Below, piece by piece: positions 6,579 through 26,320 of a stretch of DNA of 33,289 bases. How positions within the stretch are numbered: the first letter of the stretch is position 1; every line of letters begins with the position of its first letter. The position numbers and the translations under genes were made by a program. Source of the DNA: Pseudomonadota bacterium (GTDB taxonomy: Bacteria > Chloroflexota > Ktedonobacteria > Ktedonobacterales > JACDGC01); NCBI GenBank assembly GCA_021323815.1, contig JAJPKG010000422.1, positions 1 to 33,289 of the forward strand, read 5' to 3'. The notes beneath the pieces are model-generated. The model did not search any database. It was not told the origin of the DNA and saw only the letters and a program-made list of their open reading frames with translations.

Positions 6579-7568
6579 CTACGGTGCCTGAGGGGCGTGC
6601 ACCAGGCGGAAGTCGTGCAGGCGCGCCTCGCCGGTGCCGGTGCCGGCGGCGACCGCAGCGGTATCCATGATGCGCGTGTCGTCATCAAGCAGCGCGGCGA
6701 ACCGCCGGTTGGGGATCAAACGCTCCAGACCGGCATCGGCCAGCAGCCATTCGGCCAGCAGCACATAACCGGCCCACACGCGCTGATCCTGCGTGCGCTC
6801 CCACACCGGCTCGCCATAGCGAAAAGCGTGGTCAAAGAAATCGCTCGCGCGGATGGCGAACGGGAACAGCCGCTCTTTCAGATTCTCGCCCTCGACCTCG
6901 CCGGAATGGATCAGCGTATTGACGATGTCGCCAGCGCGCTTGTTGCGCGGCTCGCAGTGGGTGAGGATGATGCCCCCCAACGTGGCACGAGCGTTGCCCT
7001 CGCGCCCGCGACGCAGCAAGCGCAACGTCGCATCCATCCCTTCCAGGGATGACGCATCGGCCATGAAGGGGATGATGACGCGGTCCGTCGCCAACAAAGC
7101 GTTATCCAGCAGAATGCTCTCTTCTGCGGGGAAATCGATCAGCATAATGTCGAAGGCGGAGTCCATGCTGCGCAAGATGCCGTCGATGACATAGGGCGAT
7201 TGCAAGCGGCGAGCGACGAATCCCAGGCCCTCATCATAGGGCAGCAGTGCCATCAGTCCGCCGCCCCAGCTTGGCTTGGCGTTCAGCGGCACGGGCAGGT
7301 GCAGCGCGTCCAGCGCCGCCAGCACGTCGTCGGGATGCGGCAAATCTTGGGGCTGCAACAGGCAAAAGGGATCCAGCAGTTCGCTCAAGGTGCCGTGCGG
7401 CACGTTGGGCCAACTGTCGCGCAGCCCGGTCGAAGCCGTTCCCGGCTGGGCAAGATCCACCACCAGCACACGCGCGCCATAGAGCGCGCACAGCCGCGCC
7501 AGCGTCGTCACCGTCGTGGACTTTCCCTGGCCACCCTTCTTGATCGCTACGCCATACACCCGATGCAT
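6579..7568 (-). CDS. ParA/MinD-like deviant Walker-A ATPase with a C-terminal extension of about 80 aa (orphan)
   Basis: VYGVAIKKGGQGKSTTVTTLA (KGGxGKS deviant Walker A), DIMLIDFP (Walker B-like) and RVIIPFMAD. Start ATG 7568 has GGAAGGAG 9 nt upstream; ATG 7601 is the alternative. No parB-like gene is adjacent. Confidence 0.85.
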   Translation of the reverse strand: MHRVYGVAIKKGGQGKSTTVTTLARLCALYGARVLVVDLAQPGTASTGLRDSWPNVPHGTLSELLDPFCLLQPQDLPHPDDVLAALDALHLPVPLNAKPSWGGGLMALLPYDEGLGFVARRLQSPYVIDGILRSMDSAFDIMLIDFPAEESILLDNALLATDRVIIPFMADASSLEGMDATLRLLRRGREGNARATLGGIILTHCEPRNKRAGDIVNTLIHSGEVEGENLKERLFPFAIRASDFFDHAFRYGEPVWERTQDQRVWAGYVLLAEWLLADAGLERLIPNRRFAALLDDDTRIMDTAAVAAGTGTGEARLHDFRLVHAPQAP

Positions 7569-7644
7569 GTTTCGCCGCTCCTTCCCGCTCGTCGCCATCA
7601 CCGGTTACTTTTGTTCGCTCGAACGTTCTACATTCCAAGAGAGT

Positions 7645-7673
7645 AGTATGTTCCTGTTCACGTCGGTTGTCAA
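7645..7673 (-). promoter_or_regulatory. Candidate sigma70-type promoter of the ParA-like gene
   Basis: On the minus strand: TTGACA (7673-7668), a 17-nt spacer, then CATACT (7650-7645), about 70 nt upstream of ATG 7568. Confidence 0.35.
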
Positions 7674-8201
7674 CAGACCAGGGACCATGCGCACTCCCCA
7701 AAAGTCCTTGTATAATCGGGCTAGACCAAAATGCCCCCTTGACAGAAAAATGGCTTTCTTCCTTGTCGGCTCTCTCCTCTTAGGTAAAATGGTTGGGATA
7801 GTCCTCCCATATGGGCTATCAGACAGAATTGTTGTACAGGCAATCTGGTAAGCTGGGATCACGCTATCCACCGGACTTATGCACCGGTTGTCCACATATC
7901 CACCGCGCGCCGGTCACGGGCCAGCAAGAAACGTGGCTGCAAGCGCGCCGGTAAACCAGGTGACACACCGGATTGGACATCGCGCACTGATTCACGCGCC
8001 GGAATTCAGGGGCCGATCAGGGATTGACGGCGGGTGGAGATCATATCGCAGGCCAGCGGTGCCGCGCGGACGCATGCGGCATAGAGAAACGATCTCCACG
8101 ACAGCAGGCGCGCAACTACATAATGGGCCAGCTTGCAAAACTGCGCGGGCGACGAAAAAGGTATCTGAGATCGCCCTGGCGCAAGGAGGATTTGTCTTGT
8201 C

Positions 8202-9446
8202 ATGACACAACCAACGTCAAGTGATGCGAATCTTGCACAGGCACAGAACAAGGGTGAAGAAGCCCTGCCGTTGCCAGGATGGCTGACCAAAATCTATTAC
8301 ATCTTCCCCATCGTCCTGTACGTGCCGGACATGCTCTTTAACTATTACGTCTACAGCGACGGCGCGGGAATCGACTACAACAACCTCAACGTCTTGACGG
8401 TGTTTTACATCGTCCTGTGGGGTTTCCTGGCTGCCGGCATTGTTGGCATGGCCTGGTTGTGTTCTGTGCTGGCTCCGTGGCACTGGATCAAGGGCAATAA
8501 GTTCCAATCCGTGATGTGCTGGTTCGGCGTCATCATCGCCACCAGCATCACCACCTGGAATTCGCTGGCATATCGCTCGCAGAAGTTCGTGTCATTCAAA
8601 ACGGATAATTGGCTGACCACAACCAGCCATTCCAGCGGCTTCAGCCTGACGATGATCCTCGTTTCGGTTGCGCCGCCCTTCTGGGGTCTCTTCTGGGCCA
8701 TCGTCCAGCCCGCCGTCGGCAAGAAGTCGCTGGCCGAGGAGCAAGAGTCGCACGCGATGAAGATCGAGCGCATGAAGCAGGAAGCGGAATATAAGCGCCT
8801 GCGCGCCGAAGCGAATGCCCAGGTGCGCGCCGCCCAATTGAAAGGGTTGGCTGCCACTGCCCGCGCCGCACGCGCGCAGCTCACCGGCAAGCCGGAAGCG
8901 ACAGTGCAGGAAGAACAGCAGCCGGAAAACGTCATCGACGCGCCGCCCACCTCAGAGCGCATCGTGGCGCTGCCTTCCGCCAGCATTCGCCGCCTGAGCG
9001 AGCGCCGGGCAGGCTGGAACACCGAGGAAACAACCGAGAGCGGCGAGCACGCGATTGTCCAGGGAGCCGCCGCCAGCATGTCCTATTCCGTCAGCGCCGC
9101 CCCGCGCGACGAGGTCTTTGAAGCGCCCACCGGCGAGTTCAGCGCACGCCCCATGCAGGGGACCTTGCTGGGCAACACCGGTGTCAGCGGCGAGCACGAA
9201 GCCATCCGCCCCGGCATGCCCCGCGCCAGCACGCTGCTGCGCAACTATGCCGACGGCGAGCACGTCATGCGCGCTGTGGATGCCGACGTGGAACGCATGC
9301 GCGCTCAGGGCAAGAAAGTCACCATCAAATCCTTCGCCGAAGAGCGCGGCATCGAACTCAGCATGTCGAAGCAGCTTCTCGCCAAGTGGCGCGAATGGAA
9401 GGCCAATCAGGCGCAGCCCGCCCCCCGCGCCGAGATGGCCGAATAG
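8202..9446 (+). CDS. Hypothetical membrane protein: four N-terminal TM helices, a central charged coiled-coil and a soluble C-terminal region
   Basis: TM segments IYYIFPIVLYVP.., VFYIVLWGFLAAGIVGMAWL.., VMCWFGVIIATSITTW.., GFSLTMILVSVAPPFWGLFWAIV, followed by EEQESHAMKIERMKQEAEYKRLRAEANAQVRAAQLK. SD AAGGAGGA lies 11 nt upstream. I recognise no family. Confidence 0.6.
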   Translation: MTQPTSSDANLAQAQNKGEEALPLPGWLTKIYYIFPIVLYVPDMLFNYYVYSDGAGIDYNNLNVLTVFYIVLWGFLAAGIVGMAWLCSVLAPWHWIKGNKFQSVMCWFGVIIATSITTWNSLAYRSQKFVSFKTDNWLTTTSHSSGFSLTMILVSVAPPFWGLFWAIVQPAVGKKSLAEEQESHAMKIERMKQEAEYKRLRAEANAQVRAAQLKGLAATARAARAQLTGKPEATVQEEQQPENVIDAPPTSERIVALPSASIRRLSERRAGWNTEETTESGEHAIVQGAAASMSYSVSAAPRDEVFEAPTGEFSARPMQGTLLGNTGVSGEHEAIRPGMPRASTLLRNYADGEHVMRAVDADVERMRAQGKKVTIKSFAEERGIELSMSKQLLAKWREWKANQAQPAPRAEMAE

Positions 9447-9485
9447 CCGTCACGACACGCTTCGTCCCTTCTTGCCAGATACGAT

Positions 9486-9545
9486 CGCCGGGAGTTCAAC
9501 CTCCCGGCTCGGAACAGAAACCCCGCTTGGCTGTAAGCGGGTTTA
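9486..9545 (-). repeat. REP-A double-hairpin element, copy 2 (between convergent genes)
   Basis: CGCCGGGAGTTCAACCTCCCGGCTCGGAACAGAAACCCCGCTTGGCTG is nearly collinear with 23711-23759. Its second hairpin, CCCGCTT-GGCTGT-AAGCGGG followed by TTTA, can act as a terminator for the 8202-9446 gene. Confidence 0.75.
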
Positions 9546-11484: not shown

Positions 11485-14340
11485 ATGCGGAGGGGATTTT
11501 ATTGGCGTTACGCGGCGAGATCGCTGAGGCGCGGCGGGCAGCGCACCGTGCTGGGGGCATTTTGCATCGCGGTGGGCGTGATGGCGATTGTGGCGCTGCA
11601 ACTGGTGGGCTTAAGCATCAACCAGGCGCTCACCGGCAACATCGTGGAAGCCAATGGGGGCGATCTGCGCCTTGACACCATCCTGCTGCCGCTGCACCAG
11701 AGCGATCTGGCGATCTTCGACCGCTATAAACAAACGGGCCGCATCGATGACTATGCCACCACCTATGAGACGCCCTCGCTGATCGTCCTTCCTGATGGGC
11801 GCGTCGTCCCGTTCGATCTCGTCGTCGCCTCGGCGAATTTCCCTCTGGCCGGCCAGGCAGATTTCACCGCGCCGCGCCACGACCTGCGCATTCAAGATGT
11901 GGTGCGGGGCAGCAGCATTGCCGTGAACAGCTACGTGGCAGATGAGCTTGGTGGACATCTGGGCGACAGCTATCAGATCAAGACCGGCGACGGGCAGGTG
12001 GTGACGGCGACCGTCGCGGCGATCTTTCAGGATGGCGGCGCGTTTCATGGCCCGCAGGTGATCCTCAGCCGCGCGGCGCTGGCGAATGTGCCGGTGGCCG
12101 GGGGCAAGGTCCCGCCCGCGCAATACACCACCGTCATGCTCACCGCGCCCCAGGCGAACCTGAACGGCTTGCGCGATGAACTGCGCCAGCGCTTCCCCAC
12201 CGCCACCGTCGTCACCGCGCAAGACGAACTGAACCTGCGGCGGCATGATGTCGAATCGATCCAGTTGTTCCTGCGCATCGTGGGCCTGCTGGCCCTCTTC
12301 ATCGGCGGGGTGGGCATCATCAATACGATGCAGGTGCTGCTGCGCCGTCGCCGGGTGGAGATCGCCATGCTCAAGGCGGCGGGCTATGTGCAGCGCGATC
12401 TCTATCTGCTCTTTGGGCTGGAAGCCGCGCTGCTGGGCGCGCTGGGCAGCATCCTCGGCACGCTGCTGGGCATCGGCGCGGCCTATGCCGTGCGCTCGGT
12501 GGTGGAGCAAGCCTTCTTCCTGCATCTCACCATCCCGCTGGACCCAGTGACGCTGGCCGCCGCGCCGGTTGTCGGCATCATCACCGCCTTGATCTTCGGG
12601 CTGTTGCCCATCGTGCAGGCCAGCCGCGTGCGCCCGCTGGCCGTGCTGCGCGACGATGCCGCCGGAGCCGGCACCGCATGGCCCCTCACCGCCGCGCTGC
12701 TGGGATTGCTCTCGCTGCTGTTCGTTGCATTGTCGGGGGCGATTCTGGGCGATCTGGCGACGGCGACGATGGTGGTCTATGCCGGGGTGAGCGTGATTGC
12801 CCTGCTGGCGCTGGGCTTCGGCGCGCTGGTGGCATTGATTGCGCGCCTGCCGGTCTATGATCGTCCGCGCTGGGGCATGCTGGGATGGCTGCTGCCCGCG
12901 CTGATCGTCGCAACGATGCTGAGCGCAGCCCTGGTCTTCGTGGCACGCCGCCTCACCGGCAGCAACGTTGCCGCCCTGGCACTTTCCGGCGCGATTCCTT
13001 TGCCGGTGAAGGCGCAACTGGGCGCGGCGGGGATTCTGCTGGCGCTGAGTGGCGGCGCGCTGGTCTTTCTGCTGGCCGTGCTGGGCGACAGCGCCATCAT
13101 GTTCATGCCCCGCGCGTGGAAGACCGCCGTGATGTTGGCTTATCGCAACATGGGTCGCCAGCGGGCGCGCACCACCGCTACGCTCACCGCGCTCTTCGTC
13201 GGCGTCTTCGCCATCGGCATGGTGGTGATCCTGGGCAAAGGCATCCAGGCGACCATTGACACGACACTGAACACGCTCTTCGCGCATAATCTGTTCGTGG
13301 TGGTGCCGCCACAGCAAGACGCTCAGGTGCGCAACGCGCTGGCTGGCGCGCCGGGGATTGATCCCAGCCGCACCATCGTTGCCACTGTGGCGCGGGTGCA
13401 GCCGGTGGAAGTGGGCGGGCGCGACATCGCCACCGTGCTGGCCCAGGCAGGCGCAGGCGGCGGCAGCGATTCAGGCATTGCGCGGGGCAACGCGATCTTG
13501 CTAGTGCTGAGCCTCGCCGAAGGCTATCACGTCGGCAGCGGCAATCCGAACGATATCCCCGCCGTCAGCATCGACTATGGCCGCAATCTGCAAGCCTCGG
13601 ATGCCTGCACGGGCAACATCGTCGTCAACGATCTGCTGCGCCGCCCGCCGCTCTCGCTGAACATGGGCGACACCATCGTGGAGCGCAATCCCCTGGGCAA
13701 GATGCAACGCGCGCTCACCATCGTCGGCTTCTATAGCCGCGCGCAGACAACCGATTTCGTGCCGGGTGAGGTGCTGGGCGACGTGTCAGCCATTGCGCCG
13801 CTCGGCACCGGGCTGGAGCGCGACATCTTCTTGTTGCGCGCCGACCCCAACCAGATCCCCGCACTGCGCGAGCAATTGGACCGGCAACTCCCCTCGGCGC
13901 AGATCGTCAGCGTCACCGATCTCAATCAGATCATCGACCGCGTGCTGAACAATCTGATCATCATGCTCTCGGCCATCGCGTCGTTAGCATTGATCGCCGG
14001 GCTGATCATCATCGCCAACACCGTCGCTCTGGCAATGGTGGAACGTCGCCGCGAGATCGGCATTCTGAAATCCGTCGGTCACACCAGCCGCTCTGTGCTG
14101 GCGATGGTGTTGATCGAAAACGGCCTGGTGGGTTTGCTGGGGTCGCTGGTGGCGCTGCTGCTGGTGCTGGGCGTCATCGTGGCGTTGAGCCTGCTGGTGT
14201 TTCGCGTCACCATCCTCATCAGCCCCGTGCTGGCCGGCGGCATCATCGGCCTGACCGTGCTGGTGACGATGCTCATCGCCGCGCTCGTCGCCTGGGGCGC
14301 GACCCGCGTCCGCCCGCTCGATGTGCTGCGCTATGAGTGA
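11485..14340 (+). CDS. Double FtsX-domain ABC-transporter permease (YbbP/MacB-like, 951 aa)
   Basis: Two repeats of the FtsX architecture (TM helix, large extracytoplasmic domain, three TM helices). N-terminus YAARSLRRGGQRTVLGAFCIAVGVMAIV. C-terminal module ERRREIGILKSVGHTSRSVLAMVLIENGLVG...RVRPLDVLRYE. Confidence 0.85.
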   Translation: MRRGFYWRYAARSLRRGGQRTVLGAFCIAVGVMAIVALQLVGLSINQALTGNIVEANGGDLRLDTILLPLHQSDLAIFDRYKQTGRIDDYATTYETPSLIVLPDGRVVPFDLVVASANFPLAGQADFTAPRHDLRIQDVVRGSSIAVNSYVADELGGHLGDSYQIKTGDGQVVTATVAAIFQDGGAFHGPQVILSRAALANVPVAGGKVPPAQYTTVMLTAPQANLNGLRDELRQRFPTATVVTAQDELNLRRHDVESIQLFLRIVGLLALFIGGVGIINTMQVLLRRRRVEIAMLKAAGYVQRDLYLLFGLEAALLGALGSILGTLLGIGAAYAVRSVVEQAFFLHLTIPLDPVTLAAAPVVGIITALIFGLLPIVQASRVRPLAVLRDDAAGAGTAWPLTAALLGLLSLLFVALSGAILGDLATATMVVYAGVSVIALLALGFGALVALIARLPVYDRPRWGMLGWLLPALIVATMLSAALVFVARRLTGSNVAALALSGAIPLPVKAQLGAAGILLALSGGALVFLLAVLGDSAIMFMPRAWKTAVMLAYRNMGRQRARTTATLTALFVGVFAIGMVVILGKGIQATIDTTLNTLFAHNLFVVVPPQQDAQVRNALAGAPGIDPSRTIVATVARVQPVEVGGRDIATVLAQAGAGGGSDSGIARGNAILLVLSLAEGYHVGSGNPNDIPAVSIDYGRNLQASDACTGNIVVNDLLRRPPLSLNMGDTIVERNPLGKMQRALTIVGFYSRAQTTDFVPGEVLGDVSAIAPLGTGLERDIFLLRADPNQIPALREQLDRQLPSAQIVSVTDLNQIIDRVLNNLIIMLSAIASLALIAGLIIIANTVALAMVERRREIGILKSVGHTSRSVLAMVLIENGLVGLLGSLVALLLVLGVIVALSLLVFRVTILISPVLAGGIIGLTVLVTMLIAALVAWGATRVRPLDVLRYE

Positions 14341-14469
14341 AAAGGACGAGACGCGAAGGACGCGAAGAGTTTTGAAGCGACGCAAAGATTCTTTTCAAAG
14401 ATCTTTATTGAGGGGAGATCGACAATACTACATCTTTCCCTCGTCTATCTTCGCGTCTCGTTCTTTTTC
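14341..14469 (+). repeat. E-family long-hairpin element, copy E1 (full)
   Basis: Left arm AAAGGACGAGACGCGAAGGACGCGAAGAG; the reverse complement of the right arm reads AAAAAGAACGAGACGCGAAGAT. The element starts directly at the stop codon of the FtsX gene. GAAG/AAAG motifs end at 14358, 14367, 14377 and 14387 (spacing 9, 10, 10). Confidence 0.8.
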
Positions 14470-14526: not shown

Positions 14527-15159
14527 ATGCTGAAAAAGAGACCAGGGAAAGCGAGTCCATCCCCGATGCTGAACGAGTTGACCTGCCAGTTGGATCATGC
14601 TGTCCTGTTGCGCTTGCTGGCGGAACACGATGCCGCCACCTATGCCCATTCCTGTGCCGTGCGCGAACTGGTGCACCAGCTTGCGATGGAGATGCAGCTG
14701 GACGCAGCGACAAGGATGTTGGCGAGCCGGGCGGCGTTGCTGCACGACATCGGCAAACTCGGCATCGCGCGGCGGATCTTGCAGAAGCCGGGCAGGCTCA
14801 CCCACAGCGAGCACCTGGCGATGCGGCGGCATCCGGTGCTGAGCGCGGAGATCGTGGCGACGCTACCCACGCTGCGACACCTAACCCCGGCGGTGCGCCA
14901 CCACCACGAACGCTGGGACGGCGCGGGATATCCCGACAAGCTTGCGGGCGAGCGTATTCCCTTGCCCGCGCGCCTCATCGCCGTCGCGGATGCGTATCAC
15001 GTCATGACCGCCGGCAGGGCATATCAATCATGCCGCGCTGTGTCGCACGCACTGGCAGAGTTGCGTCGCTGCGCCGCCACGCAGTTCGATCCCACCGTCG
15101 TCCGCGCCTTCTGCCAAATGATGCAGCAGACGCAGGGTGAAATGGAGCGCGCGGCGTAG
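14527..15159 (+). CDS. HD-GYP domain protein (probable c-di-GMP phosphodiesterase), stand-alone
   Basis: AHSCAVRELV, ALLHDIGKLGI and HHERWDGAGYPDKLAGERIPLPARLIAVADAYHVMT are the HD and HHExxDGxGYP signatures. Alternative GTG start at 14500. Confidence 0.85.
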   Translation: MLKKRPGKASPSPMLNELTCQLDHAVLLRLLAEHDAATYAHSCAVRELVHQLAMEMQLDAATRMLASRAALLHDIGKLGIARRILQKPGRLTHSEHLAMRRHPVLSAEIVATLPTLRHLTPAVRHHHERWDGAGYPDKLAGERIPLPARLIAVADAYHVMTAGRAYQSCRAVSHALAELRRCAATQFDPTVVRAFCQMMQQTQGEMERAA

Positions 15160-15168
15160 TGTAAAGTA

Positions 15169-16005
15169 TCAGTCGTCGCGAATGTCATGCAAGGGTAAGC
15201 CTGTGCGTTCCAGCACATAGGCCAAAACAGCGTCTATCTGCTGGTTATAGGCTTCTGTTGGCAGCGGCGGAAGGTAACCGAACCGTTGTGCGAAGCCCTT
15301 TGGGGGAAGTCGCCACCATGAAACCACGATAAATGTGCGATTGTCAGTGACTTCAAACTCAACAGGTAGCGTATGGGTACGTGGTCCGGCAAGCGCAACT
15401 GTGCGAACATTCTGCCATTTCATTTTGGAAAGGATGCCCAGTGGTGTTTTCTGAGAAATGCCTTCGTCGTTGACGATCAATCCCATAGGGCCAAATGCTA
15501 GAAGAGCAGGGATAATGACACTGGATCCAGCTACAACAGCACCTATAATTGTTAGCAAGGGCGCGCCACCAAGAATCTCTAGCACTAATAATCCTAAGCA
15601 CAAGATTGCGAGCAGGCTTGTAAAGATTTTGAACCAGAGCCGTGCGCGCAGCCGAACAGTCAATGGTAATGTGAGCATAGGCTGCGTCACTGGTGACTGG
15701 GTCAGGAATTCAATTGCTGAGTCTTCTATAATGCGTTGGCGTTTTGCTTCACGTTGCTCCAGGACAATGGCCTTGCGCAGCATGAATCGTCCTAAGAACA
15801 GGATTATCAGACTTAGTCCCACGAAAAAACTGATGGAGCTGACAAAGATCACAACGTCCTTTGCTGCCCAAAGAGCAGGTATAACAAAAGGCAAAAGCAG
15901 CATGGGGATAATCGTAATGAGCATCACTACGCCAAGTGCAATTATCATATATGCTGTCATCTTCTTTGACGGCGTTTGGTTCAGTAGCGGTGATGGCTTC
16001 GTCAT
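15169..16005 (-). CDS. Hypothetical polytopic membrane protein with a soluble C-terminal domain, in an AT-richer island
   Basis: ATG 16005 is preceded by AAGAGG (6-nt spacer). Two pairs of TM helices are separated by the charged linker LEQREAKRQRIIED. Composition is clearly AT-richer than the neighbouring DNA. Confidence 0.6.
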   Translation of the reverse strand: MTKPSPLLNQTPSKKMTAYMIIALGVVMLITIIPMLLLPFVIPALWAAKDVVIFVSSISFFVGLSLIILFLGRFMLRKAIVLEQREAKRQRIIEDSAIEFLTQSPVTQPMLTLPLTVRLRARLWFKIFTSLLAILCLGLLVLEILGGAPLLTIIGAVVAGSSVIIPALLAFGPMGLIVNDEGISQKTPLGILSKMKWQNVRTVALAGPRTHTLPVEFEVTDNRTFIVVSWWRLPPKGFAQRFGYLPPLPTEAYNQQIDAVLAYVLERTGLPLHDIRDD

Positions 16006-16146
16006 AGGGCACCTCTTGGTAGCAGGGACAATTGAATTATTGTTAGAGAAGTTGCATGCCCACATTATCTACCAGCCATCAAGGGCAGTGCTTATTCATC
16101 CCGTATGCAAAGCATCGACAAACCTTAGCACAACCGCTTCTGCATT

Positions 16147-16155
16147 TGCTATAAT
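16147..16155 (+). promoter_or_regulatory. Candidate extended -10 promoter element (TGCTATAAT) for the desaturase gene
   Basis: TGnTATAAT match about 40 nt upstream of ATG 16196. No convincing -35 element. Confidence 0.3.
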
Positions 16156-16195
16156 CTCGAATGGACGATAGCATCAAGATAAAGATAAAAGAGGA

Positions 16196-17620
16196 ATGAG
16201 TGAGATGCAAGCTGGGGAGCAACGGGCGCGGGTGGTGGTGGTCGGCGGCGGGCTGGCGGGGCTGGCGGCGGCGCGCAAGCTGGTGATGGCGGGCCACGAG
16301 GTCGAACTGCTGGAAGCGCGCGACGTGCTGGGGGGCAAGGTGTCGTCGTGGTGCGACGCTGACGGCGACTGGATCGAGAGCGGGCTGCACGTCTTTTTCG
16401 GCGCGTATGACGAGATCTTCACCCTGATGCGTGACGTCGGGATCTATGACAACATCCTGTGGAAGCAGCACGTGCTGCGCTACACCCTGGCGGGCGGCGA
16501 CCATTTCGATTTCGAGAATTGGCCGCTGCCCAGCCCCATGCACCTGTTGCCCACCGTCTTTCGCAACAAATATTTCTCCTGGCCGGAAAAGCTGACGCTG
16601 GCCCGCGCCCTGCCGCGCATCGTGCTCAGCAGCGACGACTATTACGAGCAGCAAGACGCCTTGACCTATGAGGAATGGCATTTGCAGCAGGGAATCAGCA
16701 AAAAGATGCTGAAAAAGATGTTCCTGCCGATGGCACTGGCGCTGAAATTCGTCCCACCGCCAGAGATCTCGGCGCGGGTGGTGCTGGACGTGGCCGGGAT
16801 CTTCCTGCGCGAGAACGGCGCGTCGCGCATGGGCTTCCTTTCCGGCTCGCCGCAAGACACACTCATCGGTCCCATCGCGGCGGATCTCGCGCGGCGCGGC
16901 GTCACCATTCGCACCGGAGCGAAGGCGCGGGAACTCATCCTTGACGCCGCCGGGCGTGTTGCAGGCGTGCGGCTGGCAAACGGCGACGAAGCGCGGGCAG
17001 ATGCCTTCGTACTGGCGCTGCCGGTGCATCAGCTCAACAAATTGATCCCCGCTGAGTGGAAGCGCGAGCATGCGTATTTCGCTAACCTGGCGCAGTTCGA
17101 GGGCGTGCCGGTCATCACCGCACAACTGTGGTTCGACCAGCAAGTGACGGGCATCGACAACATCCTCTTTTGCCCGGACGGCTGCATCCCTGTCTATGCC
17201 GATCTCGGCAACACCACGCCGGATTATGCCGTCGGCGGCAGGTCGCGCATCGAAGCGGTGGTCGCGCCGGCGAAACACCTCTTTGACTGGGATGATAAAG
17301 CGATCATCGATCAAGTATGGCGCGACATCCAGAGCGTCTTTCCCCGCCGCACCGTCGGCGTGAAGATCACCAAAGCAACCGTTGTGCGCATCCCGCAGTC
17401 GGTCTATTGGCCCAAGCCGGGGCTGAACCGCCTGCGCCCCGGCCAGCACTCGCCCATCCCGAATCTGTACATCGCTGGCGGCTATACGCGCCAGCGGTTT
17501 TATGATAGCATGGAAGGAGCGGTCGCCAGCGGCAACCGCGCCGCCGCTGCCTTGCTGGAAGATGCCCGCACCGAAAAGCTTGCAACTGTCGGGGCAAGTT
17601 TCGCACTGTCGGAAGAATAA
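16196..17620 (+). CDS. PDS/ZDS-type FAD-dependent carotenoid (phytoene / zeta-carotene) desaturase family protein
   Basis: VVVVGGGLAGLAAARKLVMAGHEVELLEARDVLGGKVSSWCDADGDWIESGLHVFFGAYDEIF closely parallels the N-terminus of plant/cyanobacterial PDS (GAGLAGL..LLEARDVLGGK..DGDWYETGLHIFFGAY). ATG 16205 is an alternative start. Confidence 0.8.
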   Translation: MSEMQAGEQRARVVVVGGGLAGLAAARKLVMAGHEVELLEARDVLGGKVSSWCDADGDWIESGLHVFFGAYDEIFTLMRDVGIYDNILWKQHVLRYTLAGGDHFDFENWPLPSPMHLLPTVFRNKYFSWPEKLTLARALPRIVLSSDDYYEQQDALTYEEWHLQQGISKKMLKKMFLPMALALKFVPPPEISARVVLDVAGIFLRENGASRMGFLSGSPQDTLIGPIAADLARRGVTIRTGAKARELILDAAGRVAGVRLANGDEARADAFVLALPVHQLNKLIPAEWKREHAYFANLAQFEGVPVITAQLWFDQQVTGIDNILFCPDGCIPVYADLGNTTPDYAVGGRSRIEAVVAPAKHLFDWDDKAIIDQVWRDIQSVFPRRTVGVKITKATVVRIPQSVYWPKPGLNRLRPGQHSPIPNLYIAGGYTRQRFYDSMEGAVASGNRAAAALLEDARTEKLATVGASFALSEE

Positions 17621-17766
17621 AGTGACGGGAACGCGAAGAGCACGAAGAAAGCGAAGCACCGCGAAGGGATTGAATTGCAACGTGGAACCAAGATCATGAA
17701 ACACTCCTTTGAAAAGGCGATGCCGTATCCCCAACATCTTCGCGTTCTTCTCGTCTCGTCCTTTTG
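17619..17766 (+). repeat. E-family long-hairpin element, copy E2 (full)
   Basis: Left arm AAAGTGACGGGAACGCGAAGAGCACGAAGAAAGCGAAGCACCGCGAAGG, with CGAAG ending at 17638, 17647, 17656 and 17666. Right arm CATCTTCGCGTTCTTCTCGTCTCGTCCTTTTGG. The element begins inside the TAA stop of the desaturase gene. Confidence 0.8.
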
Positions 17767-18250
17767 GCGGCGCGTGCGGTGGTGGCAAGTGCTTGTGGTG
17801 CTGGCGCTGCTGGGGCAATTCCTGGCACCGATCTTTGTCATCCTCCAGATCTGGCCGTTTGGGCCGATCGGGCGGTTCATTTATTGGCTGGGAGCGAGCA
17901 TCTGCCCGATCGCGTGGGACACCCCATCGTTCCTGGGTCGCCCCATGATCGTCTGCCCGCTATGCTATGGCGCATTGGTTGCGCTGGCAACGCTCATGTT
18001 TTCCTATCCGCGCCCGCGCCGCGCCTGGCTGGCGTGGTTCGCGCTGTCTCCCTACCTGCGGCTGGCTGTTGCCGCGCTGCTGATCGCCCCCTGGCTGTGC
18101 GCGTATGTGCTCATCAAAGCCGGCGCGTGGTCGTTGCCCTGGGGGATCATGTTCGCGGATGGGCTGCTGGGCGGCATCGGCACCGCGCTGGTGGGCTATC
18201 AGCTCATGGAATTGTCGCTGCCCCGCGCGGCACGGGGAGAACTGCCATGA
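17696..18250 (+). CDS. DUF2085-like integral membrane protein (start uncertain)
   Basis: ICPIAWDTPSFLGRPMIVCPLCYGALVA resembles the two-Cys-pair core of DUF2085, followed by TM helices. The possible starts ATG 17696 and 17720 lie inside repeat E2; GTG 17774 lies just beyond it. The stop overlaps the next gene's ATG. Confidence 0.5.
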   Translation: MKHSFEKAMPYPQHLRVLLVSSFWRRVRWWQVLVVLALLGQFLAPIFVILQIWPFGPIGRFIYWLGASICPIAWDTPSFLGRPMIVCPLCYGALVALATLMFSYPRPRRAWLAWFALSPYLRLAVAALLIAPWLCAYVLIKAGAWSLPWGIMFADGLLGGIGTALVGYQLMELSLPRAARGELP

Positions 18251-18783
18251 ACACGCATCTCGTCTTGATCGATGGCTATAATGTCATTCGCCGCTCGCCG
18301 CAACTGGCACAGGCAGAGCGTCGCTCGCTGGAACATGGGCGCGCCGCGCTGATCACGTTGCTGGCCGCGCGCTATGGCCGCCGACCCGCCGAGATTGTGG
18401 TCGTCTTTGACGGCGCAGAAGGGCGCGAGGTGCGCACCGCGCAGATGGGCATCGGCATCATCTTCACCGCCGCCACCTGCACGGCGGACGACTGCATTCT
18501 GCGGCTGGCGGCGGAAGCCGAGGCGCAGGGCCGGCCCGTCACCGTCGCCACTGATGACGCGGGCATCCGCGCTGCCCTGGGCAGCCATGCCCCCACGTCG
18601 CAGGCGCGCCCCGTCGCCGCGGTCAACCGCGAGATCTATGCCGCCGACCGCGTGCGCGAGCGGCAATATCGCCATCGCAGCGCCATCAAGCAGATCATGG
18701 CACAAGACGCGGACGCCGAGCCGTTCGATCCGCGCAAGGCCAAACGGGGCAATCCGCGCCGCGCGCCAAAACCAAAGCGGTGA
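18247..18783 (+). CDS. YacP/NYN-domain (PIN-like) predicted RNA-binding/ribonuclease protein
   Basis: MNTHLVLIDGYNVIRRSPQL...IVVVFDG...IIFTAATCTADDCIL...VTVATDD is the YacP-like NYN pattern. ATG 18247 overlaps the upstream stop (ATGA). The 339-aa ORF in the track is a frame-shadow extension. Confidence 0.8.
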   Translation: MNTHLVLIDGYNVIRRSPQLAQAERRSLEHGRAALITLLAARYGRRPAEIVVVFDGAEGREVRTAQMGIGIIFTAATCTADDCILRLAAEAEAQGRPVTVATDDAGIRAALGSHAPTSQARPVAAVNREIYAADRVRERQYRHRSAIKQIMAQDADAEPFDPRKAKRGNPRRAPKPKR

Positions 18784-18838
18784 GAAGCGGCAGGCGATGT
18801 CGCTTGCAAAAACAGGTCGGATACTGCATGCACCGCCT

Positions 18839-18884
18839 GCCGGGGGCTGAAGCCACCCGGCTCGAAAAAGATGCCCTCCGGGCG
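18839..18884 (-). repeat. REP-A double-hairpin element, copy 4 (between convergent genes)
   Basis: GCCGGGGGCTGAAGCCACCCGGCTCGAAAAAGATGCCCTCCGGGCG is the reverse-orientation match to the family pattern. Confidence 0.8.
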
Positions 18885-18935: not shown

Positions 18936-20165
18936 TCAGTGCAAGGCAACCTGGTCGAAGGTGGCGGTGTTCACCTGGGTCAGCGTGTGTGAGGTCACCG
19001 CCAGACCTGCCAGCACCGCGCCGGGCATCGTCATGGTGCTGGATGAGCCGGGGACGACGGTCCAGGTGACGCCATCATTCGACATGGCAGCGGTGTAGGT
19101 GTTGCCGGAGCGCGACACCTGCACAAAGATGGGTGTGGTTCCAGGCAGGCTGGCGACGGTGCTGACTCCGCCGCCTTGCGTGGCACGGCGCAACACAAAG
19201 ATCCCCCGCTGGGGCGTGACGAGCATGGCATAAAACGGCGCACCGGGATCAGTGCTCTGGCGCAGCATCACCCCAGCGCGGGCACGGCTGTTGGTGTTCG
19301 CTTCCGTCACCACGCGGGCACTGATGCCGCCGTCGCCCGGCAAGGTCTGCCACGCCAAATGGAACTGATCCGCTGTGCCGCCGATGTCGCGGCCTGAGCC
19401 GGCGACCGTCCAGACGCCATTGGCATAGGAATCGCTGCCCGGCAGTGGTGGATTGCCGATATCCGCGCCGTTCCAGCCCGGCGGCGGGGGAATCGGAGCG
19501 TTCACATCCAGCGTTCCCGCCGCCTGCCACTGAATCGATTCGTTGCGTTTGGGCTTGCAATAGCCCACGTCGATGCCGCCGGTATCCAGCACGTGATGGC
19601 TATCCACAATGGTGCTGACCACACCGTTGATGGTCAATTTTACTGTCGGTTGCACCGTCACCGGCGTGCAGTTGTTCGCCGGATAGCCGCTGGTGTCGAA
19701 GTTGTCATATCCCGGATTATTCCCCGGTGGATCTTCGGTGAGGATGACGCTCTGCCCTGCTGGCACGGTGAACGATCCCCACAAGCTAAACACCTTGCCG
19801 CCGGGGATGGCTGAATGCATATCAACGGTCACATTGCTGACGGTGACGGCGCTGGGGCCGGGATTATCCAGCCGGATCGCCCCCGCGTCATAGCACTGCG
19901 GCAGCGCGCCGCATGCCGTTTGCCCCACGACCGGCCCGCCAAGAAATGCCACATTGGGCGCTCCCGCCCAGGGTGAGGGAAAGGTTCCCGGCACCGGCGT
20001 GTTGGTCTCTTTATCTTCGGCATACCCGAAATAGACCGAGAGCGTGGTGCCGCTCAGCGCCGCCGCTCGCGATGGCGCAGCATGATACATCGTCACGACG
20101 CTCAGGGTGCTCGCCAAAAGCACCATTGCCAGCCGGAATCGCCGGAAAAGATGGAACTGTTGCAT
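18936..20165 (-). CDS. Secreted protein with a C-terminal LamG/concanavalin-like domain
   Basis: ATG 20165 (GGAAGG upstream) gives the signal peptide MQQFHLFRRFRLAMVLLASTLSVVTMYHAAPSRAAA. The C-terminal block WNGADIGNPPLPGS..YANGVWTVAGSGRDIGGTADQFHLAWQTLPGDGGISARV...RAGVMLR is the recurrent 'ADIG...W.V.G.G.DI.G..DQF' glycan-binding-like module. Confidence 0.7.
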   Translation of the reverse strand: MQQFHLFRRFRLAMVLLASTLSVVTMYHAAPSRAAALSGTTLSVYFGYAEDKETNTPVPGTFPSPWAGAPNVAFLGGPVVGQTACGALPQCYDAGAIRLDNPGPSAVTVSNVTVDMHSAIPGGKVFSLWGSFTVPAGQSVILTEDPPGNNPGYDNFDTSGYPANNCTPVTVQPTVKLTINGVVSTIVDSHHVLDTGGIDVGYCKPKRNESIQWQAAGTLDVNAPIPPPPGWNGADIGNPPLPGSDSYANGVWTVAGSGRDIGGTADQFHLAWQTLPGDGGISARVVTEANTNSRARAGVMLRQSTDPGAPFYAMLVTPQRGIFVLRRATQGGGVSTVASLPGTTPIFVQVSRSGNTYTAAMSNDGVTWTVVPGSSSTMTMPGAVLAGLAVTSHTLTQVNTATFDQVALH

Positions 20166-20386
20166 AAGATTGCTCGCCTTCCGGGTGAAATAGCCCGGCA
20201 TTCTCGCATGCCGAACCTCTATCCGAGCGGGATGCAACTCGTTCCGTGCGATGCATGCTCGTCGATGGTTTTCATCATACCATATGTTCTTGACACTCAT
20301 CTGCCACGTTCGCATGGAGTAGCCAAACATGATATACTGGATCACAACTGCCCTGTTTGTGAGGAGAGTTGCATAGGAGGCACGTG

Positions 20387-20710
20387 ATGTCCCACCAGAT
20401 GATGATTACCCTAACGGATCAAGAATATGCCGCGCTTCAAGCTGAGGCAGAGCGCTCAGGTCAGCCGCTGGAAGCACTGGTGCATGCTGCGCTTGCCCCC
20501 CTTATGAGGGATGAAGCGCCCACCACTGCGCCTATGACCGAGCGAGAGTTCGCGGAATATCTCTTCCGCAAAGGCGTCACCATGAACGTTGCCACTCACG
20601 AGCCGCTTGATCCTGATGAAGAAGCGGAATTAGAAGCACTAGCCCAGCTGTTTTCTGGAGGCAAACCAGCTTCAGAAATGGTTATTGAGGATCGAGGGCC
20701 GCGCGAGTGA
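20387..20710 (+). CDS. vapB: Type II antitoxin (VapB-like, partner of the PIN toxin)
   Basis: ATG 20387 with TAGGAGG 6 nt upstream. N-terminus MITLTDQEYAALQAEAERSGQPLEALV resembles a ribbon-helix-helix/Phd-type DNA-binding N-terminus. The stop overlaps the toxin start (GTGA). Confidence 0.65.
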   Translation: MSHQMMITLTDQEYAALQAEAERSGQPLEALVHAALAPLMRDEAPTTAPMTEREFAEYLFRKGVTMNVATHEPLDPDEEAELEALAQLFSGGKPASEMVIEDRGPRE

Positions 20711-21171
20711 GCACATTTTTCTTGGATACCTCAGCTCTCATCAAGCATTATGTGGTTGAGCAAGGGCACGCTTGGATGAAATCTCTTTGCGATCGGTCTC
20801 AGGGGCACCAGTTGTTTATTTCACAAGTGGCCTTGATCGAAGTGGTGGCGACGCTTTGCCGTAAAGCGCGAGAACAAAGCATATCTATTAGCCGTCGTGA
20901 TGCGCTCATAGATTTGTTTTCGCGCCATCGTCGCAAATCCTATGAGATGGTGCGCGTCACCAACGCGATTTACCTTGCGGCGGGAAATCTGTGCCGGAAC
21001 CACAAGCTACGGGCCTATGATGCTATCCAGATGGCCTGCGCGCTAGCTGTGCGCGCTGATGCTGTCTCGCGGAATATGCCTGTTCCCATGTTCGTATGTG
21101 CTGATAGCGCTTTGTTGGCGGTTGCTGCGGCTGAAGGAATGCCAACCGATAACCCCAACAACCACCCATAG
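20707..21171 (+). CDS. vapC: PIN-domain toxin, VapC family
   Basis: FFLDTSALIKHYVVE (first acidic PIN motif), LRAYDAIQMACA, and a 4-bp overlap with the upstream small gene. AT-richer island. Confidence 0.85.
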   Translation: MSTFFLDTSALIKHYVVEQGHAWMKSLCDRSQGHQLFISQVALIEVVATLCRKAREQSISISRRDALIDLFSRHRRKSYEMVRVTNAIYLAAGNLCRNHKLRAYDAIQMACALAVRADAVSRNMPVPMFVCADSALLAVAAAEGMPTDNPNNHP

Positions 21172-21188: not shown

Positions 21189-21217
21189 TTGGCAAAGTCA
21201 TTCCCATGTGCTATACT
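21189..21217 (+). promoter_or_regulatory. Sigma70-type promoter of the thrS T-box leader
   Basis: TTGGCA (21189-21194), a 17-nt spacer, then TATACT (21212-21217) with TG at the extended -10 position (TGCTATACT). Confidence 0.55.
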
Positions 21218-21223: not shown

Positions 21224-21498
21224 AAGAAGAACACTATCGTTGAGCGGGACACGTCGCCCACCTCAGCGCGACAGAGACAAGCGGCCATCGGCTGAGAGCC
21301 GCGCGACGCGCATCACGGGCCGGGCGATACCCCCCGCGAGATGGCGCAGCATCGATAATGCGTCACGGTCGCCCCGTTACCGGCAACCAATGAGCGCTCG
21401 CGGGCATCTTGCCGGCGGGCGGAATGTGGGTGGAACCACGCGGCGACCCGTGCAAACCGGTCCTTGCGTCCCAGTGCGGATGCGAGGGCTTTTTTATT
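21224..21498 (+). promoter_or_regulatory. T-box riboswitch leader (tRNA-sensing, presumably tRNA-Thr) of thrS
   Basis: AGAGA bulge motif (21272-21276), distal hairpin GCGGC..GCCGC (21281-21302), F-box CCGTTA (21373-21378), T-box sequence AATGTGGGTGGAACCACGCGG (21422-21443), then an intrinsic terminator. Located upstream of an aminoacyl-tRNA synthetase gene. Confidence 0.75.
21462..21498 (+). terminator. Intrinsic terminator of the T-box leader
   Basis: Stem CCTTGCGTCC (21462-21471) pairs with GGATGCGAGG (21478-21487), including two G-U pairs. 6-nt loop, followed by GCTTTTTTATT. Confidence 0.7.
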
Positions 21499-21501: not shown

Positions 21502-21650
21502 AAAAAGGGGACGAGACGCGAAGATCACGAAGGTAGCGAAGACCGCGAAGATATAACAAGAAATATCATGAGAGGCATCACAGCTAACAAGCGTTTCAAA
21601 AGAACCTTCGAGTCCTTCTTAACCTTCGCGTCCTTCGTGTCCCGTCCTCA
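21502..21650 (+). repeat. E-family long-hairpin element, copy E3 (full), inside the thrS leader
   Basis: Left arm AAAAAGGGGACGAGACGCGAAGATCACGAAGGTAGCGAAGACCGCGAAG, with CGAAG ending at 21523, 21532, 21541 and 21550 (exactly 9-nt phase). Right arm CCTTCGAGTCCTTCTTAACCTTCGCGTCCTTCGTGTCCCGTCCTC. Confidence 0.8.
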
Positions 21651-21671
21651 ATCAGAAAGGATTGATCAGCT

Positions 21672-23519
21672 ATGCCCGAAGATGTCGCGCAAGAGTTTAG
21701 TTCGTCGGTGAACTATACGCCCATTCAGCGCATGCGCCATTCGGCGGCGCACGTGATGGCCGAGGCCATTCAGGATATGTTCCCGGATGCCAAGTTCGCC
21801 ATCGGTCCGGCCATCGAGGATGGCTTTTACTATGACATGGAGTTGCCGCGCACACTGACGCCGGAAGATTTCCCGGCCATCGAAGCGCGGATGGCGGAAA
21901 GCATCGCCAAGAAGCATCCCTTCGTGCAGTCGCGGTGGCCCCGCGAAAAAGCGCTGGCCTATTTCCGCGAGAAGAACCAGCCCTATAAGGTTGAGATCAT
22001 CGAGAGCCTGCCGGACGCCGAGGTGGGCATCTATCAGCAGGGGCCGTTTCTGGATCTCTGTCGCGGGCCGCACGTGGAAAACACGGGACAGATCGGTCCT
22101 TTCAAGCTGATGCGCGTGGCGGGGGCCTATTGGCGCGGCGATGAGAAGCGCCCTATGCTCCAGCGCCTTTATGGCACGGCGTGGTTCACGCAGGAAGAAC
22201 TGGATACATATCTCTGGCAGCTTGAAGAAGCCAAAAAGCGCGATCACCGCAAGCTGGGCCGCGAACTGGGTTTGTTCACGTTCAGCGAAGATGTGGGACC
22301 CGGCATCCCGCTCTTCTTGCCCAAAGGCGAGATGCTGCGGCATTTGATGGAATCCTATGTGCGCGAGACACAGGAGCGCTATGGCTATCAGCACGTGTGG
22401 ACGGGCAACATCGCCCGTGTGCGGCTCTATAAAACGTCGAAGCACTGGTACCACTATCGCGAGGGCATGTTCCCCAAGATGGAGGAGGAGCGCGACCTGC
22501 GCGAGGGCGAGACGCCGGAAGAAGCCGAGAACAACAGCTTCGAGTTGAAGCCGATGAACTGCCCGTCGCACTTCATCCTCTATAAATCGCAGCGCCACAG
22601 CTATCGTGAGCTGCCCATCCGCTATGCCGAGTTCGCCACGCTCTATCGGTATGAGAAGCAGGGCGAATTGTCGGGCCTGACGCGCGTGCGCGCCCTGACG
22701 CAGGACGATTCGCACATCATCCTGCGTCACGATCAAGTGATGGACGAATTCAGTCGCATCGTGGATCTGGTGCGCGAGATCCTCACGACGTATGGGCTGA
22801 CGGATTACAGCGTGCGCCTGTCGCTGCCGGATCTGTCTGATTCCGAGAAATATCACGGCAACGTGGAGATCTGGGAGCGCGCGGTGGCCGACCTGCGTGC
22901 GGCGCTGGATAGCAAGGGGTTGGCCTATGAGGCAGTGGAAGGCGAAGCGGCCTTTTATGGTCCCAAGATGGACCTGATGGCCCGCGACGCGCTGGGCCGC
23001 GAGTGGCAGCTTTCCACGATTCAACTCGATTTCTTCCAGCCGGAAAATTTCGAGTTGGAATATATCGGCGAGGACGGCCAGGCGCATCGCCCTGCCGTCA
23101 TTCACCGCGCCATCATGGGATCAACGGAGCGCTTCCTGGGCGTGCTGATCGAGCATTACGGTGGCAACTTCCCCCTGTGGCTCGCGCCGGTGCAGGCTGA
23201 GGTCATCCCCATCGCGGATCGCCATCTGCCGTATGCTGGGCACGTGGCTGCACGGCTGCGCGAGGCTGGCTTGCGCGCCGAGGTGGATTCGCGCAGCGAG
23301 CGCATGAACGCCAAAGTGCGCGACGCCCAGATGCAAAAGATCCCCTATATGCTCGTCGTCGGCGACAAAGAGGCGGAATCCGAATCCGTCAGCCTGCGCC
23401 TGCGTACGAACGAAAACATCGGCGCGGTGCCGTTGGAACAGTTCATCGAGCGCGCCAGTGCCCTCAACCGCGCCCGCAGCCAGGATCTGTGGGTGACGGA
23501 AGCGCCGGTGGGGGAATAG
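21672..23519 (+). CDS. thrS: Threonine--tRNA ligase lacking the N-terminal TGS domain
   Basis: MRHSAAHVMAEAIQDMFPDAKFAIGPAIEDGFYYD (editing-domain HxxxH block) begins at residue 21. Class II motifs are present: FELKPMNCPSH, FATLYRYEKQGELSGLTRVRALTQDDSHI, GEAAFYGPKMD and HRAIMGSTERF. An anticodon-binding C-terminus is present. Confidence 0.95.
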   Translation: MPEDVAQEFSSSVNYTPIQRMRHSAAHVMAEAIQDMFPDAKFAIGPAIEDGFYYDMELPRTLTPEDFPAIEARMAESIAKKHPFVQSRWPREKALAYFREKNQPYKVEIIESLPDAEVGIYQQGPFLDLCRGPHVENTGQIGPFKLMRVAGAYWRGDEKRPMLQRLYGTAWFTQEELDTYLWQLEEAKKRDHRKLGRELGLFTFSEDVGPGIPLFLPKGEMLRHLMESYVRETQERYGYQHVWTGNIARVRLYKTSKHWYHYREGMFPKMEEERDLREGETPEEAENNSFELKPMNCPSHFILYKSQRHSYRELPIRYAEFATLYRYEKQGELSGLTRVRALTQDDSHIILRHDQVMDEFSRIVDLVREILTTYGLTDYSVRLSLPDLSDSEKYHGNVEIWERAVADLRAALDSKGLAYEAVEGEAAFYGPKMDLMARDALGREWQLSTIQLDFFQPENFELEYIGEDGQAHRPAVIHRAIMGSTERFLGVLIEHYGGNFPLWLAPVQAEVIPIADRHLPYAGHVAARLREAGLRAEVDSRSERMNAKVRDAQMQKIPYMLVVGDKEAESESVSLRLRTNENIGAVPLEQFIERASALNRARSQDLWVTEAPVGE

Positions 23520-23545
23520 GGAGCAGCTATCTGCTAACGGTTTTG

Positions 23546-23569
23546 TAGGGGCAATGGCATGCCTCGCCC
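23546..23569 (+). repeat. REP-B GTAGGGGC-type unit
   Basis: GTAGGGGCAATGGCATGCCTCGCC differs at one position from the reverse complement of 1763-1786. Confidence 0.7.
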
Positions 23570-23710
23570 GCCGTGCCATAGGTGATGTGGGGTCCAATGG
23601 CAAAGGCAATCGCCCGGCTCACCGTGCCAAACGCGAGATGATCGCCGGGCGAGGCAGCCGGGGGGATAAATGCAGTTGTACACAATAGCGCGGACACCGC
23701 ATGGCATGCA

Positions 23711-23759
23711 CGCCGGGGGCTGAACCCCCCGGCTCGGAAAGACCAACCCCACCGGGCTG
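23711..23759 (-). repeat. REP-A double-hairpin element, copy 5
   Basis: CGCCGGGGGCTGAACCCCCCGGCTCGGAAAGACCAACCCCACCGGGCTG, reverse orientation of the family pattern. Confidence 0.8.
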
Positions 23760-23844
23760 TCCGGGGGACGTGGGAAACATCATCAATCCCCTGCCGGGTG
23801 TGCAGGGCGTTCTCGCCGCCAGCGCATGCGTCCTGCGCGCCCTT

Positions 23845-23900
23845 GTTTTCTTCCTTCCCTGGCTTTCGGTGAATAATTCTGTGTCCTCCGTGTCCCGTCA
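23845..23900 (+). repeat. E-family element, right-arm-only remnant (E5)
   Basis: ...GTGTCCTCCGTGTCCCGTCA matches the right terminus of E3 (GCGTCCTTCGTGTCCCGTCC). No left arm is nearby. Confidence 0.5.
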
Positions 23901-24059
23901 TTCCCCCTATCCCCCATCTTGTCTATGTCACTAGGCAAGAGGACAAGGAATGCGCTACAATACGTTCGTTTTACAAGGCGTTTTCCCGATTCCGGTCTTA
24001 TACAAGAGCGTTCCGGCGCATCAGCCCATGCCAGCAGAAAGAAAAGGGGCGCACATCAG

Positions 24060-26033: not shown

Positions 26034-26049
26034 AATCAGACAAGCGTTT

Positions 26050-26101: not shown

Positions 26102-26156
26102 TGATGGACGGTGATCGCGTTGAATGAGCGTGATTGCCGGGCACGAGGTTGGGCGC

Positions 26157-26266: not shown

Positions 26267-26320
26267 TGTCCAATCCCACGCCACACCACCAACCTTGCCA
26301 CGCGCGATTATCTTCTACTT

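Follow-up and report, generated by a model that had tools for sequence, protein, structure and literature searches.

Uncultured Ktedonobacterales carry a lineage-specific and apparently previously undescribed family of palindromic elements, the E-family, which we lean towards reading as a non-autonomous mobile repeat of the MITE/REPIN kind whose arms would be multi-site recombinase-binding arrays. An element consists of two inverted arms of 45-60 nt each, 75% purine, with a short variable centre between them. Five loci lie in the window, by which we mean the whole stretch of 33,289 nucleotides that was analysed, and they lie where a preliminary description of this DNA had placed them: three full elements (E1-E3) and two solo arms, a left one (E4) and a degenerate right one (E5). 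A profile HMM built from 25 arms and searched against the window with nhmmer recovered exactly the eight arms of that description and no others. The five loci, and a further candidate, are as follows.

14341-14469, unstranded: E1, full; left arm ~14341-14399 with 3 phased GAAG units, right arm decayed, ~14429-14469
17619-17766, unstranded: E2, full; left arm 17621-17675 with four CGAAG units, right arm 17728-17766
21502-21653, unstranded: E3, full; left arm 21505-21562, right arm 21593-21653, four units per arm
30645-30712, plus strand: E4, solo left arm with four units (nhmmer 30651-30701, E = 7e-11)
23861-23911, minus strand: E5, degenerate solo right arm, weak (nhmmer 23881-23909, E = 0.44)
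28174-28217, plus strand: possible strongly decayed E-like arm remnant downstream of rtcB, weak

The left arm of E1 matched the profile well (14338-14399, E = 1e-11) and its right arm only weakly (14448-14465, E = 0.09), while the matches to E2 covered 17631-17675 on the left and 17732-17765 on the right. E5 is weak and is treated here as a remnant; its reverse complement reads GACGGGACACGGAGGACACAGAAT, and it lies upstream of a Ser/Thr kinase gene. Three copies had been reported to begin at or near stop codons, and these codons are indeed true gene ends. E1 begins directly 3' of TGA 14338-14340, which closes an FtsX-type permease gene (11485-14340), E2 starts at TAA 17618-17620, the end of a CrtI-like amine oxidase gene, and E4 occupies the gap between two ABC-2 permease genes, the first ending in TAA 30640-30642 and the second with its SD/ATG at 30724. 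The right end of E1 is followed by TTTTT; a run of T4-5 follows E1 and E2, not E3 or its orthologue, and a simple terminator scan flagged none of the E elements.

The host is an uncultured soil member of the Ktedonobacterales (Chloroflexota), as judged from its ThrRS homologues, and the genes of the window are housekeeping genes (ribF, fhaA/B, ftsW, rtcB, ABC transporters, thrS, a Ser/Thr kinase and a PIN toxin). The elements differ from the window in composition, with 44-50% GC compared to 61%. We also noted a low-GC island at 15150-16200 (44-52% vs 61%) that possibly represents foreign DNA and holds one minus-strand ORF, 15169-16065, which encodes a hydrophobic, probably membrane, protein with no family match and has an atypical GC by codon position (0.54/0.41/0.50).

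All arms follow one plan. In the arm HMM, a purine lead of variable length (3-15 nt) precedes the arm terminus, and the consensus then reads GGACGAGAC-RCGAAG, G.CRCGAAG, .....GAAG and ..CRCGAAG, with a weaker inner arm end, R-TTTTT-GAARAG, in HMM columns 53-60. Each arm, counted after the terminus GGACGAGAC, bears 4-5 short motifs with the core GAAG, mostly CRCGAAG, at a step of 9-10 nt. In 47 good arms, with the G of GACGAG as origin, GAAG starts at offset 10 in 46/47, at 19/20 in 45, at 28/29 in 36 and at 37/38 in 34. Of the 141 intervals between successive GAAG cores, 85 measure 9 nt and 19 measure 10 nt, and deletions of one 9-nt unit are present in some arms. Motif positions are ~93-100% conserved per arm and the interspersed positions are random. 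The window holds 7 occurrences of the string CGAAGNNNNCGAAG, where dinucleotide-preserving shuffles predict 0.06; none of 100 shuffles reached 7.

The preliminary description gave the correct CGAAG end positions for E3 (21523/21532/21541/21550) and E2 (17638/17647/17656/17666), and the phasing that it reported is kept across dozens of copies in other metagenomes. Its four CGAAG units are real as phased units, but the CGAAG core does not hold for the third unit and the core that is conserved is GAAG. Likewise, the TTTCAAAAG/TTTGAAAAG motif that it placed in the centre is the weakly conserved inner arm end, and is merely approximate in E1. The term helical-turn phasing does not fit the E-family, since the spacing is mostly 9 nt and sometimes 10 nt, and a turn of B-DNA, at 10.5 bp, is longer; phasing of 10-11 nt was found in a sibling family only.

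Two inverted arms can pair, and we examined what this pairing reflects. The predicted potential to form a hairpin holds for E1 (RNA fold -51.8 kcal/mol, z = -5.4; ssDNA z = -4.7) and E3 (-54.9 kcal/mol, z = -5.9) and is weaker for E2 (RNA z = -1.9). As ssDNA, whole elements fold with z = -4.7 to -6.9, and single arms fold like shuffles (z = +0.19, -0.02 and -0.81). We aligned left arms and reverse-complemented right arms to the profile, which gave 29 columns that are at least 75% conserved and 12 variable columns. At the variable columns, arm identity was 0.372 within one element vs 0.394 between elements (1501/2000 permutations at least as high), and at the conserved columns it was 93.5% both within and between elements. 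Furthermore, a pair count in 13 gap-free elements showed no excess covariation between arms: 83.3% of cells were paired as observed vs 84.1% when 3' partners were shuffled (430/500 at least as high). The hairpin thus results from two inverted copies of one motif array, and nothing else maintains the pairing. A selected RNA or ssDNA structure, which had been put forward for these elements, is not supported, because complementarity at variable positions is no higher within elements than between them and shuffled partners pair equally well. The protein-binding array that had been suggested beside it fits best, as motifs are kept, spacers are random and solo arms keep four units.

E3 lies in the leader region of thrS, which is organized as follows.

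21231-21490, plus strand: T-box leader and terminator, immediately upstream of E3; the T-box itself spans 21231-21476

A promoter-like site (21189-21217) precedes the T-box, a terminator-like hairpin (21459-21490) plus a T-run closes it, and thrS occupies 21672-23519. E3 follows the T-box leader/terminator and precedes the SD of thrS, which places it within the thrS 5'UTR. The T-box was matched by Rfam RF00230 at 38.3 bits (E = 1.6e-5), far below the gathering score of 93; there was no gathering-level Rfam match in the window, and at E <= 1 the only other match there was a chance one of mir-483 on E1 (E = 0.82). The thrS T-box leader is conserved in five relatives, and the Rfam model may cover ktedonobacterial T-boxes poorly. 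A small ORF and a PIN-domain gene, resembling a VapBC toxin-antitoxin pair (20369-21171), lie directly upstream of the T-box promoter.

The orthologue of E3 is found in a relative's locus, L127 (9838-9983), so that window and L127, whose ThrRS proteins are 91% identical, have this site filled by one shared orthologous element. Between the two, the E3 arms are 85% identical (93/109), compared to 69% (177/256) at the four-fold sites of thrS (Fisher p = 0.001), 67% in the E3 centre and 76% in the T-box. Since its arms exceed the neutral proxy, this copy looks constrained in place, which should not be expected of a purely selfish, inactive copy. The constraint on E3 favours some host-level or protein-binding role; other copies decay or get replaced, as in L135 and in the rtcB remnant. 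Separately, L127, the closest relative, holds an RVT_1 reverse-transcriptase gene (7558-8994) ~500 nt upstream of the thrS T-box that is absent there in the window.

It is conceivable, although we think it unlikely, that the elements instead serve the host as RNA, either as a stabilizer like REP/BIME of E. coli or as an RNase III site of the phage T7 type, and would shield the upstream cistron from 3' exonucleases, uncouple cistrons by cutting, or tune downstream translation. All five copies in the window and all three in L127 lie between co-directional genes or in a 5'UTR, just past a stop codon and 10-25 nt before an SD plus start codon, as such a role would suggest. Any thrS mRNA made from the T-box promoter necessarily contains E3, and neither E3 nor its L127 orthologue has a T-run that would stop transcription before thrS. 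The conservation of the E3 arms above the neutral proxy and the folds much stabler than shuffles point the same way. However, the arms do not covary, their shared consensus fully explains the pairing, and mismatched internal loops remain at the variable positions. Solo arms, E4 among them, retain all four units without a partner to pair with. Junctions of 3-10 nt suffice in close relatives, copies decay in some lineages (L135, and 28174-28217 of the window), and no Rfam family matches the elements.

The comparison of orthologous junctions argues for mobility. Both empty and filled sites exist, as the preliminary description had proposed to look for: four junctions are empty, filled, or differently filled among relatives. 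At the thrS site, a shorter variant with arms of the TCGAACACGAAGG type is present in L135 (91%) and a sibling element with CGGAATG units 10-11 nt apart in L133 (88%), and L134 (87%), L128 (86%) and L130 (83%) are without an E element. The E4 junction holds a solo E arm in the window, a composite of sibling-type arms of ~200 nt in L140 (87%), and nothing in L141 (86%), where it reads TAA-GGAGGATGCA-ATG with a 10-nt spacer. Similarly, the E2 junction is empty in L139 (77%), reading TAG-CGG-ATG, and is occupied by a short TCGAACACGAAGG-type hairpin in L136-138 (85%). At the 3' site of rtcB, a recognisable E-like element follows a shared TAG-AAATTGCGTTC.CTGGAAGAA in L140 and L141 (L141:8295-8351), and the window keeps GCCGAACACGCA alone, as a remnant.

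Filled sites do not always hold the same copy. In the orthologous loci L036 and L093 both junctions are filled, with identical residues at 10/33 variable and 75/81 conserved columns; these copies are as unlike as unrelated members, which implies replacement or independent insertion. Elements are also nested, with a sibling element within an E element in L106/L115 and a GTAG-type REP-like repeat inside E centres in L091 and L093. What had looked like a small ORF separating the L091 arms proved to be this nested repeat. Presence and absence at junctions, replacement, nesting and a patchy distribution are together the behaviour of mobile DNA.

Proximity to stop codons, which had been raised as a possible insertion preference, is not supported as a choice of target. 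The closeness follows for the most part from the shortness of the spacers at these junctions, which measure 3-10 nt, the ancestral ones at two sites having 3 and 10 nt. The unusual feature is the repeated colonisation of such tiny junctions. No consistent target-site duplication was seen in 26 flank pairs, inspected by eye and not scored, and the filled-vs-empty comparisons show none, with relatives too diverged to fix ends exactly. A sharp element end could not be defined, and the length of the purine lead varies.

In one case an element has been exapted as coding sequence. E2 is not purely intergenic, as the next gene takes its first 24 residues from the centre and right arm of the element.

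17696-18250, plus strand: downstream membrane-protein gene, with its start codon and first 24 codons within the E2 centre/right arm

The product of this gene aligns with those of the orthologues L139:1574-2095 and L136:3449-3982 (65-72% identity) from RRVRWWQ onward, and its N-terminus, MKHSFEKAMPYPQHLRVLLVSSFW, comes from E2, which displaced ~42 nt at the 5' end of the gene. GC by codon position is coding-like (0.62/0.49/0.78). The ORF at 17764-18783 (339 aa) was rejected as a single NYN gene, being an out-of-frame stretch fused to the real NYN/YacP gene (~18247-18783); the real upstream gene, 17696-18250, is in another frame.

To follow the family further, we scanned 185,579 species-representative genomes with the strict pattern GGACGAGACGCGAAGNNNNYGAAG and found no family copy. 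Of the five matches obtained, three were one recurrent Actinomycetota sequence, and none of the five had further phased units. The pattern was too narrow, since most arms read GACACGAAG. A looser pattern returned 120 loci from metagenomes, several dozen of them with true members, mostly on short soil contigs that often carry two elements per 1-2 kb. Many matches belonged to unrelated recurrent sequences and were discarded, among them a peat family (AGCTGTTGGGCGGACGGGACGCGAAGAAGGCGAAGGG), an Actinomycetota sequence (GTTAAGCCTTTGGACGAGACGCGAAGGTCTCGAAGGC) and matches in coding sequence. Sixty-three loci yielded 101 arm matches, some of them chance matches to the pattern, and from these came the 47 good arms; there were 25 full elements of 88-244 nt, besides many solo arms. 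IMG/VR viral contigs gave 0 matches, blastn against PLSDB plasmids gave no match, and the literature that was searched on repeats, MITE, REP and IS of Ktedonobacter/Ktedonobacteria describes no such element. Density is patchy: the 33-kb window has 8 arms and 13 kb of L127 have 6, but L128, L130 and L131 (~22 kb each) have none.

The sibling family shares the terminus GACGRGA and the long-palindrome architecture, and has CG(G/A)AATG units with spacings of 10,10,11 and 10,11,10,11. Its copies occupy the same junctions or are nested in E elements.

L133 4885-5012: sibling-family copy
L106 1335-1470: sibling-family copy
L140 10877-11084: sibling-family copy

Units and spacing vary by lineage (CRCGAAG at 9-10 nt, TCGAACACGAA-type, CGGAATG at 10-11 nt), and the terminus GACGRGA is common to all. 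In L135 and L137, which come from one sample, arms of the TCGAACACGAAGG type stand in place of the GGACGAGAC-type arms of the window. Such genome-specific subfamilies at the same junctions suggest concerted evolution with a recognition factor.

These subfamilies, the 93-100% conservation of motif positions between random spacers, the constraint on arms singly with solo arms intact, and the helical phasing of the sibling units (10-11 nt) would also suit a non-mobile chromosomal protein-binding array, made of operator-like or nucleoid-protein sites that were spread and homogenised by recombination. BIMEs, for comparison, are bound by gyrase or IHF. We nevertheless regard this as improbable, to about the same degree as a role in RNA. 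The flanking genes (thrS, an ABC transporter, crtI-like, nifU, pgm) are functionally unrelated and show no logic of a regulon, and the 9-nt step of the E-family would put successive sites on different faces of B-DNA. Furthermore, elements are present or absent among relatives at 86-91% protein identity, are nested and lie in spacers of 3-10 nt, all of which is what mobile DNA does.

If the elements are mobile, they would be moved in trans. In agreement with the preliminary description, Pfam and NCBIfam searches found no transposase in the window, and among the ORFs scanned there was also no Y1_Tnp-type match and no resolvase-type gene; the elements themselves are without an ORF. Two ORFs, 15169-16065(-) and 18936-20345(-), were considered as transposases and rejected, as neither matches a transposase family. 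The latter possibly encodes a secreted protein, its translation having a hydrophobic N-terminal stretch. No transposase or recombinase gene adjoins any copy in the window or the relatives' loci, nor does any arm pair flank a recombinase-sized ORF in ~0.7 Mb of loci.

We hypothesize that each arm is a docking platform with multiple sites for a trans-acting recombinase or transposase. Several protomers might bind an arm cooperatively and pair both ends, as TnpA dimers of the IS607 family do, and the hairpin would then be a by-product of two inverted arrays that is not itself selected. Insertion, replacement and nesting would occur at gene junctions, usually between a stop codon and the next ribosome-binding site, with no detectable target-site duplication. 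The elements may be tolerated at these junctions because they do not block read-through, and they may even supply a new start codon. As neither a target-site duplication nor an enzyme was found, we infer this recombinase-binding mechanism, and with it that a protein binds the arms, by what chemistry transposition proceeds and which enzyme is involved.

Among known systems, bacterial MITEs include Correia/NEMIS of Neisseria, ERIC, RUP and Nezha. Like these, E elements are small (88-160 nt), non-coding and multi-copy, have terminal inverted repeats around a variable centre, and form a lineage-specific burst; their sites are filled or empty, co-transcription is possible, and coding sequence and start codons can be donated. 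Unlike for MITEs, neither a target-site duplication nor a cognate IS was found for them in the window or loci, and their arms are arrays of 4-5 phased sub-repeats rather than a single terminal inverted repeat. MITE copies are uniformly 80-95% alike, whereas E copies share motif positions only, with saturated spacers.

REP sequences and their REPIN-RAYT systems resemble the E-family in being extragenic palindromic doublets at gene 3' ends and in operons that persist at orthologous positions, and the genome-specific E variants suggest co-evolution with a recognition protein. In contrast to the REP unit, a GC-rich self-hairpin of 20-40 nt with a GTAG/CGTC tag, the E arm is 75% purine, does not fold and has no tag. 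The E-family behaves like a MITE or a REPIN and yet departs from both in defining features.

Another repeat family of the window does resemble classical REP/REPIN, having a GC-rich palindrome (GTAGGGGCGTGATTTATCGTG / GTAGGGGCAATGGCATGCC) and a GTAG tag. In a third family, which is found on either strand and looks like a shared terminator module, a T-rich tract links two small hairpins: CAGCCCG...GGGCT-TTTCTTTTTCGAG-CCGGGGG-TTNA-CCCCCGG.

1697-1843, 1759-1786, 23545-23572 and 26140-26282: GTAG-tagged family, inverted doublets with arms of 31-41 nt, 61-85 nt apart
1146-1195, 9474-9535, 18810-18871, 23683-23760, 26048-26076, 26321-26378, 28495-28544 and 31620-31697: third family, at least 7 copies in 33 kb

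Rickettsia palindromic elements (RPE) and other in-frame MITEs, like E2 with its start codon and 24 residues, are partly translated in a host protein, but RPE insert in frame inside genes and E2 replaced a gene 5' end at an operon junction. Chromosomal attC sites of integrons (VCRs) are imperfect palindromes of similar length between the stop codon of a cassette and the next gene, and the E elements, with 90-160 nt, an imperfect dyad, conserved ends, a variable centre and positions directly after co-directional stop codons, recall them; a cluster of attC sites without an integrase is nonetheless extremely improbable and effectively refuted, since the core sites are missing (ends are GGACGAGAC...GTCTCGTCC, not RYYYAAC...GTTRRRY), there is no integrase nearby and no cassette array, the gaps between window elements are irregular (3-9 kb), and the neighbouring genes are not promoterless cassettes but housekeeping genes that have a leader of their own (T-box-thrS). 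Readings as CRISPR or retron were also rejected, because their defining features are missing, and a reading as terminator, set aside on the same grounds, seems unlikely.

The nearest likeness to the proposed mechanism is found in the IS607 family, where in IS1535 the subterminal region has four motifs in phase, to which four TnpA dimers bind cooperatively (PMC6188088). In this family there is no target-site duplication, the distance from motif to host junction varies, and the array covers 40-60 bp (PMC6188088). The E-family likewise has 4-5 phased short direct motifs per end and no detectable target-site duplication. IS607 ends are not clear inverted repeats and have motifs ~10-11 bp apart, whereas E arms are clean inverted repeats with a step of 9-10 nt. 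The likeness is thus one of mechanism and not of membership, no serine recombinase having been found with E elements, although the E-family could conceivably be a non-autonomous derivative of an IS607-family element.

A more far-reaching possibility, which we offer tentatively and hold to be unlikely, is that the arms are recognition arrays for a co-evolving sequence-specific protein, in a vertically inherited partnership of replicator and host like REPIN-RAYT with other chemistry. RAYT proteins are Y1 transposases of the IS200/IS605 type, and the chemistry would differ because E arms cannot form the hairpins that Y1 transposases read.

For the study of these bacteria, the E-family has practical consequences. 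Ktedonobacteria have large, repeat-rich genomes that assemble poorly, and the family probably breaks assemblies, since many E-bearing contigs are merely 1-2 kb long with two elements. The elements also probably seed spurious ORFs, such as those encoding KDETRR... peptides. For the biology of dispersed repeats, the E-family is a case in which what is conserved is a phased array of motifs and not a hairpin. It has settled time and again in very short operon junctions and is able to remodel the 5' end of a gene. If the arms are read by a co-evolving protein, there would be specific colonisation and recolonisation of 3-10-nt operon junctions, in which translational coupling is reshaped and start codons are occasionally donated. 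The binding protein, if found, could define a new partnership of repeat and recombinase and would give a handle on how operon junctions tolerate inserts of 150 nt.
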